From Thainema sp. (GTDB lineage Bacteria > Cyanobacteriota > Cyanobacteriia > Phormidesmidales > Phormidesmidaceae): DNA of 32,000 bases. The notes under the pieces are model-generated. The model made no database searches, was not told where the DNA came from, and saw only the letters and a program-made list of their open reading frames with translations. Made by a program: the position numbers and the translations under genes. This document shows positions 25,268 through 27,352 of the stretch, one piece after another (within the stretch, counting starts at the first letter, position 1; each line of letters starts with the position of its first letter). The DNA lies in assembly GCA_052168235.1 (NCBI GenBank), contig JBQLZK010000006.1:1-32000 (forward strand), written 5' to 3'.

Positions 25268-27352
25268 TTATTTCGCTCGCATAGCTGATCGCACAAGTTT
25301 CTTTTGGTACTCATCAGCATCTTTGCGCCACACAACTCGATGCCCCCGCAATTCTGCACCATGCTCAGCTAAACAGTGCTGCCAGCCACGGCGGTCATAG
25401 ATCGCTTTGACATCGTCGAGCAGTCCCCACTTACCCTCCTGCTGGCTGAGTCGGGCAAACTTATCATAGTTTGGATAGTCGGCAGTAATCAGTTGCTCTT
25501 TCTGATGCAGCAGTGGCGGATTATCGAGGTTGTAATCGCGGTATCGCACCTGCAAATCCCGTAGACCAACTGCCATGCTGGTGTGGAGAGCCGGATGGGG
25601 TTCATCGTCGAAGTCTGGATAGAACAGGTAGGTGATCTGAGGCTTTTGCAAATGGAATTTGACGACCGTTGCTGCATCCGGTCGGCCAATGGTGCGGGAG
25701 GCACAACCTTCATAGAGGCGGAGCAGTGGATCAAGCTGTTCAAGGGCTGAGACATGAATCCAGAGGGAATTAGGACGCTGTTGACCAATAGGACTTTGAC
25801 GGCAGCGTTCGGCCAGGATTTCTGTCCGACCTAAGCTCATCAGCATTAGATCAGCGGCAGTACAGGCTTGCTGATAGTTGCCGAAGAGGGCTTTAATATC
25901 GTGCTGGACAGTGGCAGACAAATCCCTGAACTTAGGGCGTTTACCGAAGTGGCTCAAGGCCAAGTACACCATTAGGTCATTACGGCGCTTATCTGCGATC
26001 GCATCCCATTCACTCACATCAGTCGCTTGTAAGACGAGCTTGAACGCTCGTTTGATGCTGCCAAACTGAGACTGGATGGGACTAAAGGCGTCGGAGCCTA
26101 GCTCATCGGCAGCCGGTAAACGACCCCGCTCGGTGTAAAAGTCCATCAGCGGCTGGAGTTGGTCGCGGTATTGCTCAAACTTGCTGACCTTGAGGCGAAT
26201 CTGAGGCGCTTTGGCGCGGGAACGGAAGCGGGAGGCACGAAACGACTCGGCCTGGGCTTCATCTCGGAAGACGAAGTAAATGCCAAGCGCCACAGGAATC
26301 GCGTCTACGCCAAGAACTTGGTCGATATAGAATTTCAGTTCTTCCTGCTCGTAGTATTTCTGAAAGGTGTTGCGGCTGGTGATGATGCCGTCGCCATAGG
26401 CAATGACGCCCCGTGTCCGGTCGTCAATTAGGACTTGAGCTGCAACGATGAGAACGGTTTCAGCCAGTTGCCAGGCATTAATCAGCGCTGCTCGGCGTTC
26501 GGCGGTATCTTCAATCACATTGATCACATAGCCGAGATTGACCACCTGAGCAGAAACCTGGGGCTGATCGGGGCGAAAGTAAGGATCCCAGCCGCTGCTG
26601 ATGTGGCCGAGTCGCTGGATATACTCGATATCGGCTCCATGACCGCAACCGTAGTCGAAGTAGGTGGTGCCGGAAGGAAATAACCCAGCTTCAACGGCTA
26701 GGCGAACGGGTTTAGAAGCCGTGACACGTGCGATCGCAGCTTTGTGGCGTTGAATTTTGGGTTTAGGATTGGCTCTGGCTGACTGGATCGCACAAGCTAG
26801 GGCGTGATCATGAATTTCAATTCCTCTTTGGATCAGACGCTGTGCCCAGGCATCGGTAAAGCCAATTTCGCGAGATTTATCCAGTAAACCCAGTGCTTCC
26901 TGCTGACGGGTTAAGTACTGAAACTTGTCGTAGTGAGGATAGTCTGGGGTGACAAAGGCTTCCTTGCGGTGCAGAACAGGTGGATTTTGGGTATCGGCAT
27001 AGGAGCGTGACCAAACCTGCCCAGTTACCAAATCGACTTGTAGGCTGTGGGCGAGAGCAGGATGGGGATCGTCGTCGAAGTCAGGATAGGTGAGGTAAGA
27101 CAGCTTGAGTTGGTCAAACTGGAACTTGATTAGTGTAACGTTGAGCTGTTCCCACTGAGCTGATAAGCGGGTTCGAGCGGCTTGTTCGTAGGCTTGCAGG
27201 TAGGGGTGCAGCGCTGTTAAGGCTGAGTGATGGACATAGAGCGCGGTTGGCAAAAGTTTACCGATAGTGCTCTGCTGGCAGTGCTGTTTGATATCGTGAA
27301 GCGAAACAGCATTTAGATTGGGAAGTTGCAGGGACGATGCGATCGCAGTCAT
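25268..27352 (-). CDS. Large SAM-methyltransferase-like protein resembling the 'DNA phosphorothioation-associated putative methyltransferase' family, with a duplicated flanking domain
   Basis: Central Rossmann motif I: TYFDYGCGHGADIEYIQRLGHISSGWDP. A ~150-aa domain is present twice (nt 26804-27253 and 25328-25774), sharing YPDFDD(D/E)PHPAL, NPP(V/L)LH(R/Q)KE and DYP(H/N)YDKF. ATG at 27352 (MTAIASS) is preferred over TTG at 27418. Family assignment is from memory of TIGR04096-type proteins. Confidence 0.8.
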   Translation of the reverse strand: MTAIASSLQLPNLNAVSLHDIKQHCQQSTIGKLLPTALYVHHSALTALHPYLQAYEQAARTRLSAQWEQLNVTLIKFQFDQLKLSYLTYPDFDDDPHPALAHSLQVDLVTGQVWSRSYADTQNPPVLHRKEAFVTPDYPHYDKFQYLTRQQEALGLLDKSREIGFTDAWAQRLIQRGIEIHDHALACAIQSARANPKPKIQRHKAAIARVTASKPVRLAVEAGLFPSGTTYFDYGCGHGADIEYIQRLGHISSGWDPYFRPDQPQVSAQVVNLGYVINVIEDTAERRAALINAWQLAETVLIVAAQVLIDDRTRGVIAYGDGIITSRNTFQKYYEQEELKFYIDQVLGVDAIPVALGIYFVFRDEAQAESFRASRFRSRAKAPQIRLKVSKFEQYRDQLQPLMDFYTERGRLPAADELGSDAFSPIQSQFGSIKRAFKLVLQATDVSEWDAIADKRRNDLMVYLALSHFGKRPKFRDLSATVQHDIKALFGNYQQACTAADLMLMSLGRTEILAERCRQSPIGQQRPNSLWIHVSALEQLDPLLRLYEGCASRTIGRPDAATVVKFHLQKPQITYLFYPDFDDEPHPALHTSMAVGLRDLQVRYRDYNLDNPPLLHQKEQLITADYPNYDKFARLSQQEGKWGLLDDVKAIYDRRGWQHCLAEHGAELRGHRVVWRKDADEYQKKLVRSAMRAK

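Follow-up and report, generated by a model that had tools for sequence, protein, structure and literature searches.

A methyltransferase gene with a doubled signature module

The DNA considered here (hereafter the window) is a stretch of 32,000 nucleotides from the cyanobacterium Thainema sp. (assembly GCA_052168235.1, contig JBQLZK010000006.1, positions 1 to 32,000 of the forward strand). Its last third holds a small conserved open reading frame (ORF), a gene for a methyltransferase-like protein, a divergent gene for a DndC-like PP-loop ATPase and a gene for DndE (Table 1). Our main subject is the methyltransferase gene, whose product carries two homologous modules, one at each end of a predicted S-adenosylmethionine (SAM)-dependent core. 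The mechanical ORF (25268..27418, minus strand) specifies 716 aa from a TTG codon; the true start is likely the ATG at 27352, which gives a protein of 694 aa and matches in length its closest homologue (P0001, 94% identity).

The protein belongs, as a variant with a duplicated module, to a named but uncharacterised family, TIGR04096 (dnd_rel_methyl), titled 'DNA phosphorothioation-associated putative methyltransferase'. It matches the profile with 841.3 bits (curated cutoff 150), and aa 221-698 span all 478 profile positions end to end. Scanned separately, the middle piece of the protein matches profile positions 1-318 and the C-terminal piece positions 320-478, while the N-terminal 220 aa on their own match positions 311-476 (E 1e-43). 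The canonical layout of the family is therefore C-M, where C is the methyltransferase core and M a module of ~165 residues, and that of the window protein is M-C-M. The module is the signature C-terminal domain of TIGR04096 proteins and the N-terminal copy is additional: with boundaries defined by hidden Markov model (HMM), the copies occupy aa 40-208 and aa 537-700, and it is the former that sets the protein apart from the one-copy layout of a core followed by a single C-terminal module.

The repeat had been proposed in a first-pass annotation made from the sequence without database searches, and it holds. The polypeptide segments encoded by nt 26804-27253 and nt 25328-25774 align over their whole length with 62 of 149 residues identical (42%; BLASTP, E 3e-37), and all of the motif blocks listed for them are present: YPDFDD(D/E)PHPAL, NPP(V/L)LH(R/Q)KE, DYP(H/N)YDKF and GLLD. 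The SAM-binding motif noted between the copies is likewise in place and intact (FDYGCGHG, aa 254-261, nt 26636-26659), and the annotation was correct in describing a SAM-methyltransferase-like protein with one homologous module per end. The same annotation remarked that the copies are still alike at the nucleotide level, and this stands only in part: nt 27053-27088 and 25586-25621 are indeed identical at 32 of 36 positions, but there is no sign of recent copying. Over 160 aligned codons the two copies share 51% nucleotide identity, and at fourfold-degenerate sites under identical residues 9 of 27 match, when about 27% would be expected by chance. Synonymous sites between the copies are saturated, which makes the duplication ancient and rules out recent gene conversion as the cause of the 32/36 match; that stretch reflects amino-acid constraint instead.

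In addition to FDYGCGHG, the core carries an acidic GWDP motif, VNLGYVINVIE, and a TSRNTFQKYY loop (26351-26380) that is, by column entropy, its most conserved loop; FDYGCGHG and GWDP are invariant in 66 sequences. The helical region that follows includes a GRLP...FGS motif (26099-26125), and its matches to the HNH_repeat family (PF18780) score 19.6-22.2 bits against a gathering cutoff of 26, with precomputed or similarly sub-threshold matches in many homologues. The N-terminal module retains the ancestral motif set GK, YxH, NPPVLHRKE (26960-26986), LT..E and IG..W and has no LRxYEGCA helix. The C-terminal module retains LRLYEGCA (25700-25723) as well as NPPLLHQKE (25496-25522), with substitutions at otherwise invariant positions (K to Q, Y to W, R to Q, T to S, and G to F or Y).

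Table 1. Features of the methyltransferase region (window coordinates). Related loci are the best 80 of at least 580 matching stretches found in a scan of one genome per species.
Feature	Coordinates	Strand	Evidence or remark
Conserved ORF, about 190 aa (approximate start)	22850..23413	+	adjoins methyltransferase gene in 19/80 related loci
M-C-M methyltransferase coding sequence, 694 aa from ATG at 27352	25268..27352	-	TIGR04096, 841 bits; length of P0001
C-terminal module, aa 537-700, canonical family position	25319..25810	-	BLASTP repeat; TIGR04096 pieces; substitution statistics
Helical region, aa 401-536	25811..26218	-	two sub-threshold HNH_repeat-like units
Predicted compact class I SAM methyltransferase core, aa 244-400	26219..26689	-	motif I; invariant columns; Foldseek
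Basic linker and conserved pre-Rossmann segment, aa 209-243	26690..26794	-	net charge +7; QRHKAAIAR..SKPVRLA
N-terminal module, aa 40-208	26795..27301	-	TIGR04096 positions 311-476, E 1e-43; model pLDDT 95.2
DndC-like PP-loop ATPase, 404 aa, SGGKDS motif	27604..28818	+	PAPS_reduct E 9e-10; PADLOC DndC E 1.6e-45
DndE	30885..31277	-	PF08870 E 2.8e-43; 3.5 kb from methyltransferase gene

Divergence of the copies and origin of the layout

The two copies are far from interchangeable. Among 116 N-terminal and 119 C-terminal modules of the cyanobacterial clade, five positions are strictly invariant in the former and replaced in most of the latter: K54 (K in 100% of N copies; Q in 91% of C copies), Y61 (Y in 100%; W in 88%), R151 (R in 100%; Q in 89%), T170 (T in 100%; S in 90%) and G186 (G in 100%; F in 63% and Y in 25%). 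Modules of one-copy proteins in the wider family have both the motif set GK, YxH, NPPxLHRKE, LT..E and IG..W and the LRxYEGCA helix. N-terminal copies keep the motif set only, the helix being confined to C-terminally placed modules, and C-terminal copies of two-copy proteins keep LRxYEGCA, with the motif set wholly lost outside cyanobacteria. The two copies have in this way split the ancestral features between them, the polar and basic motif set going to the N-terminal copy and the LRxYEGCA helix to the C-terminal one, in which two basic residues are replaced. Mean pairwise identity within cyanobacteria is 54% for the N-terminal module, 69% for the C-terminal module and 77% for the Rossmann core, making the N-terminal module the fastest-evolving segment of the protein in that phylum.

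Two modules are present in all of the 120 closest homologues, cyanobacterial proteins from genera such as Leptolyngbya, Nodosilinea, Oscillatoria and Almyronema, and the best 80 loci are likewise all M-C-M and nearly all cyanobacterial. One copy (C-M) is the commonest layout among the 150 best rows of a module-profile search that returned 2150 cluster representatives at E <= 1e-3. Those 150 comprise 65 C-M and 4 C-C-M rows (about 480 aa) and 32 M-C-M and 6 M-C-C-M rows (about 670-870 aa), a doubled C here being a single core matched in two pieces, and most of the remainder look fragmentary. M-C-M is nonetheless a common arrangement, found in hundreds of cyanobacteria and in Alpha-, Beta- and Gammaproteobacteria, with one-copy forms in Actinobacteria. 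Several M-C-M genes are carried on plasmids, including pSYSM of Synechocystis 6803 (54% identity), plasmid A of Trichormus variabilis ATCC 29413, and plasmids of Picosynechococcus and Pseudanabaena.

Longer relatives, in which no extra Pfam domains were found, suggest how the layout came about. Proteins of ~1000 aa (P0003, P0086, P0089 and others) have a complete C'-M-C-M arrangement, in which the first core, C', is 45-50% identical to the second core of the same protein; its motif I is intact in P0003 and degenerate in P0086, P0089 and P0071. Given these relatives with a decaying first core, the layout of the window protein most likely arose when an entire C-M unit was duplicated in tandem within the cyanobacterial lineage and its first core then decayed and was lost. 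Both modules of the window protein are closer to one-copy modules (mean identity 0.40 for the N-terminal and 0.42 for the C-terminal module) than to N- or C-terminal modules of two-copy proteins outside cyanobacteria (0.24-0.35), which fits a cyanobacterial duplication independent of the proteobacterial two-copy forms.

Modules also occur as genes of their own. In three metagenomic loci (L094, L095 and L096) a free module of 174-178 aa that has every motif of the set is encoded by a gene of its own, which is followed after 4-33 bp, or is overlapped, by a gene of 426-500 aa that encodes a core with a degenerate C-terminal module (M'). All three of these split operons lie within phosphorothioation loci: L094 has DndB, a cysteine desulfurase-type gene (Aminotran_5) and a RelA_SpoT gene as neighbours; L095 has Aminotran_5, DUF4007 (SspB-type) and a long gene in the SspC position; and L096 has DndB and a RelA_SpoT gene, then DndE, DndD and DndC. 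DndB is directly paired with the RelA_SpoT (nucleotide pyrophosphokinase-like) gene at both L094 (7414-9995) and L096 (1666-4256). A free module is encoded as well by an uncultured 485-kb phage (35% identity, E 2e-31) and by two other phage-like contigs, each time with a small methyltransferase less than 1 kb away (core HMM E 3e-8, 9e-7 and 6e-5). The core can in turn stand alone: on a conjugative plasmid of Chroococcidiopsis, the neighbour of an ArdC-like gene encodes a 172-aa core-only homologue in which every core motif is kept. The gene downstream of this core-only methyltransferase was considered as a hidden module and discarded, as it has no similarity to one. These gene layouts show the module to be a separable subunit, and an arrangement of two unlike modules per core is found independently in proteobacterial fusions, in Dnd- or Ssp-linked split operons, and as a phage-like free module alongside a minimal methyltransferase.

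Neighbouring genes and the link to phosphorothioation

The DndC-like gene is transcribed divergently from the methyltransferase gene, 185 bp away. Its product scores 145 bits against the DndC profile TIGR03183 (cutoff 290 bits) and is, by this measure, a distinct short paralogue that falls below DndC cutoffs. The same divergent pair recurs at six related loci (L002, L003, L005, L011, L015 and L020), and at three of them (L003, L011 and L020) the paralogue coexists with the canonical DndC of a dndCDE operon. Wherever it was seen, its gene formed a divergent pair with that of the methyltransferase. An alignment of the divergent intergenic region from seven loci revealed no conserved operator element. 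In the window itself DndE is present on the minus strand (30885-31277), but the ORF adjoining it (31294-31920, 208 aa) has no family match and does not encode DndD; any dndC or dndD gene would be beyond the window edge or is missing. Two Uma2-family genes separate the DndC-like gene from DndE (28808-30890, plus strand), and on a Leptolyngbya plasmid four consecutive Uma2 genes are found beside an SspC gene (L089, 1906-4980).

Across the 80 related loci, Dnd, Ssp or cysteine desulfurase genes lie within 10 kb of the methyltransferase gene, and mostly within 4 kb, in about 26. Dnd genes adjoin it at nine, six of which have the divergent DndC-like partner (three of those six together with canonical DndC); SspB, SspC or SspD genes are present at 12, usually divergent at 90-620 bp; five have a cysteine desulfurase; and the remaining loci have varied neighbours. 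On plasmid A of Trichormus variabilis, DndB-like, SspD, SspC and SspB genes run divergently from that of the methyltransferase, as do SspC and SspB on a Leptolyngbya BL0902 plasmid. On a Pseudoalteromonas megaplasmid the order is methyltransferase-dndB-dndC-dndD-dndE, all co-directional. Synechocystis pSYSM has a cysteine desulfurase and a DUF4007 gene near the methyltransferase gene. Between these two on pSYSM (L081, 18926-23323, from the SspB-type DUF4007 to the cysteine desulfurase) are genes for a 563-aa hypothetical protein, a LAGLIDADG endonuclease and an HNH-domain protein, and the SspC-type gene of this plasmid may have been interrupted or replaced. Dnd-linked and Ssp-linked methyltransferase genes are intermixed within clusters of at least 65% identity, and the methyltransferase is therefore not tied to one type of phosphorothioation machinery.

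On its other side the methyltransferase gene is followed at some distance by the conserved ORF of about 190 aa, which in related loci is often convergent with it and directly downstream. The ORF has invariant Cys, His and Asp residues (in DQHxAHE, GAACDF and HISYG), and its product, for which no Pfam, NCBIfam or PADLOC match was found and a PDB profile search was empty, may be a functional partner of the methyltransferase. A tRNA-Val gene (22760-22832) stands immediately upstream of the region, and GC content drops to 43% and then to 33% at 23-25 kb, compared with about 50% elsewhere; the tRNA and the drop together suggest an island of acquired genes adjoining the tRNA. The 33%-GC patch lies between the methyltransferase gene and the ~190-aa ORF and encodes, on the minus strand at 23645-24986, a 312-aa protein whose HEPN RiboL-PSP match is sub-threshold (24.8 bits, cutoff 28.4), along with an 80-aa DUF1902 protein. 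Farther away in the window, an 810-aa ORF (15155-17587, plus strand) for which Pfam gave no match is located beside a glycosyltransferase gene.

Probable function and comparison with known systems

The core is predicted to be a class I SAM-dependent methyltransferase on the grounds of its Rossmann fold, its motif I and the acidic residue after beta2. Its Pfam match, to Methyltransf_23, is sub-threshold. The full-length AlphaFold model has a mean predicted local distance difference test score (pLDDT) of 85.6, with residues 189-202 of the model, in the basic linker, below 50. In Foldseek it retrieves only generic enzymes of class I whose substrates are small molecules, peptides or tRNA (probability 1.0, E at least 1.5e-3).

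The module, modelled alone, is a more confident prediction (pLDDT 95.2; predicted template modelling score, pTM, 0.89). Its elements run in the order helix, beta-hairpin, two helices, four strands, a long NPPxLHRKE loop, three helices and beta-hairpin. The first-pass annotation had stated that it knew of no characterised function for this domain, and the searches bear it out: Pfam holds no family for the module (single sequences and 34 members were searched), no PDB sequence matched it by sequence or profile, and a structure search of the kind then suggested, run with Foldseek against 350,542 PDB chains, returned no known domain (best E 0.17, template modelling score below 0.3). A candidate new fold is what the model suggests. 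The module fold is matched in BFVD by a single unnamed viral protein; the entry, A0A516LL04_1, is a 1232-residue segment with a module-like region (E 1.2e-5, root-mean-square deviation 1.6 Å over 109 columns, 22% identity), and very large phage proteins may thus be a further setting of the module.

The anatomy and evolutionary history set out above are well supported; the mechanism we infer from them. The best overall explanation, to which we would give a probability of roughly one half, is that the modules bind a substrate, likely DNA, on behalf of a methyltransferase coupled to phosphorothioation. The motif-bearing module would be the substrate-binding partner of a minimal catalytic core, a role suggested by the basic character of ancestral and free modules (median isoelectric point 9.3 for one-copy modules, 8.9-10.2 for free ones) and by the lack of any binding domain in the minimal core itself. 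The C-terminal copy would serve mainly as a core-attached scaffold, so that the chain forms a pseudo-heterodimer of modules around one active site and two unlike modules per core make up the working unit. The substrate would most likely be DNA, given the operon, plasmid and phage contexts in which the family is found, with either a base or the backbone as chemical target. The enzyme would then act alongside the phosphorothioate modification made by Dnd or Ssp, either as a second modification or as a modulating activity.

Several observations weigh against this explanation. About 54 of the 80 related loci have no phosphorothioation gene within 10 kb. The pTM of the full-length model is only 0.63, and among its Foldseek matches there is no DNA methyltransferase, the core resembling small-molecule and tRNA enzymes instead. 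Neither Pfam nor NCBIfam reports a DNA-methyltransferase match (N6_N4_Mtase, MethyltransfD12); the cytosine-5 family (Pfam DNA_methylase) is not matched either; and the Rossmann core has NLGY where a post-strand-4 (D/N/S)PP(Y/F/W) would be expected, the NPP(V/L)LH motif sitting outside it in the module. The modules of the window protein's own cyanobacterial clade are near neutral rather than basic, and the window protein carries its positive charge mainly in the linker (+7) and helical region (+4). Biochemical or genetic data on any member of the family were absent from our literature searches, which returned no paper mentioning TIGR04096 or this methyltransferase; the most detailed comparative study of Dnd systems (PMC10853773) leaves the family unmentioned, its discussion being limited to cytosine methylases and the Dam domain of DndH, which is inactive. 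Finally, the five methylated DNA motifs of Synechocystis 6803 have each been assigned to one of five other enzymes (PMC6105098). With a small-molecule-like core, no DNA-methyltransferase motifs or models, and all Synechocystis motifs accounted for, a conventional sequence-specific base methyltransferase is disfavoured.

Some of these same facts would be expected if the substrate were not DNA at all but a small molecule, an RNA or a protein, such as one that forms part of the sulfur-transfer pathway or arises as its by-product, with the module binding that ligand or a partner protein. The closest structural neighbours of the protein are methyltransferases of natural products, thiols, tRNA and protein N termini, UbiG and YtkW are its only marginal sequence matches, no DNA-methyltransferase family is matched, and this gene is not needed to account for the full Synechocystis methylome. 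We nevertheless regard a non-DNA substrate as doubtful, considering the recurrent placement of the family in DNA-modification operons, on plasmids beside an anti-restriction-type gene and on phage-like contigs, the basic ancestral modules, and the HNH-repeat-like (though sub-threshold) helical units.

It is tempting to speculate that the module recognises the phosphorothioate linkage itself, as a new-fold analogue of the sulfur-binding domain, and guides methylation of a nearby base or S-methylation of the sulfur. The gene is linked with Dnd and Ssp loci alike, two systems that have nothing but their product in common, and changes between them over short evolutionary distances; the invariant motifs, rich in Pro, Tyr, His, Arg and Lys, suit a fixed chemical ligand better than variable sequence; a small-molecule-like core without base-amino motifs would suit an unusual acceptor; and this reading is consistent with Synechocystis having no additional base-methylation motif. 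Conversely, on phage-like contigs the free module and minimal methyltransferase have no phosphorothioation gene called within about 6 kb, most cyanobacterial loci have none adjacent, and Foldseek finds no resemblance of the module to solved structures. We consider it unlikely that the module is a new fold reading the phosphorothioate backbone or some other constant feature of DNA, and the family a second-layer writer that methylates phosphorothioate DNA, possibly on sulfur. Were it so, the stoichiometry of two unlike modules per core, which has at least two evolutionary origins and is also known in the form of separate subunits, would again be the working unit, here of a new class of DNA-modifying enzymes.

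The first-pass annotation had suggested recognition of a bipartite or palindromic DNA site by a single chain, which amounts to two equivalent target-recognition domains as in a Type I specificity subunit. Two homologous modules do flank one catalytic core, the N-terminal module is the fastest-evolving segment in cyanobacteria, with variable surface segments, among them its C-terminal helix-helix-hairpin part, which looks winged-helix-like in its order of secondary structure. Such a role is quite unlikely all the same, because the copies are not equivalent (five positions invariant in N-terminal copies are replaced in 88-91% of C-terminal copies), the C-terminal copy is degenerate and free of the motifs in proteobacterial and split forms, and the majority of family members among the representatives carry just one module. 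The motif residues are moreover invariant across phyla, unlike specificity-determining recognition domains, to which the module bears no Pfam or fold likeness, and Synechocystis 6803, which has a 54%-identical M-C-M homologue, leaves no methylation motif, bipartite or other, unassigned. The pseudo-dimeric clamp that was offered as an alternative is compatible with the data only as a pseudo-heterodimer. That the module is itself catalytic, a nuclease or hydrolase acting through Asp, His, Lys and Glu in a fused modification and cleavage enzyme with one decayed module, is very unlikely: D115, H119, H150, K152 and E153 are invariant or nearly so, and are kept in one copy and lost in the other in many lineages as is typical of pseudo-enzyme pairs, but the module matches no nuclease or hydrolase family in sequence or fold and no PADLOC effector model, its motifs do not fit PD-(D/E)xK, HNH or GIY-YIG, and with neither motif nor fold in its favour we give the nuclease reading low weight.

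Phosphorothioation is, to our knowledge, the only natural modification of the DNA backbone, and the Dnd and Ssp machineries are well studied, while the widespread methyltransferase family that travels with both had previously gone unexamined. Our analysis sets out how its proteins are built, from a minimal core, a helical region and a candidate new-fold domain, and finds lineages repeatedly settling on two unlike module copies per core. Tractable hosts are at hand in Synechocystis 6803, whose homologue on plasmid pSYSM is WP_011153563.1, and Trichormus variabilis ATCC 29413, whose homologue on plasmid A is WP_011316602.1. Should the enzyme prove to modify DNA in a phosphorothioate-dependent way, bacterial epigenetic or defence chemistry would gain a new layer; otherwise the module would still represent an uncharacterised domain family of more than 2000 sequence clusters.

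Among described systems, the TIGR04096 family itself is the nearest, sharing with the window protein full profile coverage, the SAM motif and nearby phosphorothioation genes; the profile, a computational annotation only, describes the one-copy C-M form, from which the window protein differs by its N-terminal module. Generic class I enzymes (Methyltransf_23/11; CcbJ, CypM, NodS, Trm9 and TehB-like) have the same Rossmann fold, a GxGxG motif I and an acidic residue after beta2, but their matches are weak (E at least 1.5e-3, 10-16% identity) and they lack the module, the HNH-repeat-like helical region and the TSRNTFQKYY loop. Type I HsdS and Type IIG proteins likewise place two related domains, derived by internal duplication, in one recognition-modification machine; the modules have no sequence or fold similarity to HsdS (Methylase_S; Pfam, Foldseek), and whereas HsdS domains are hypervariable, the modules carry invariant motifs, with different conserved residues in each copy. 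The sulfur-binding domain of phosphorothioate-dependent restriction enzymes (ScoMcrA type), is non-catalytic and genomically associated with DNA phosphorothioation, as the module would also be. A conserved Pro/Tyr/His/Arg-rich surface of the module is conceivable as a sulfur pocket, a functional analogy that is speculative, but the order of secondary structure differs, and since no PDB chain was matched by Foldseek or profile search, homology between the two is unsupported. A further parallel is with pseudo-dimeric enzymes that have a degenerate half, where the same duplication is followed by retention of both copies and loss of the motif set in one; in the present family, where this is known from sequences, duplication with loss of motifs in one copy has occurred twice independently, and in the form of split genes as well.

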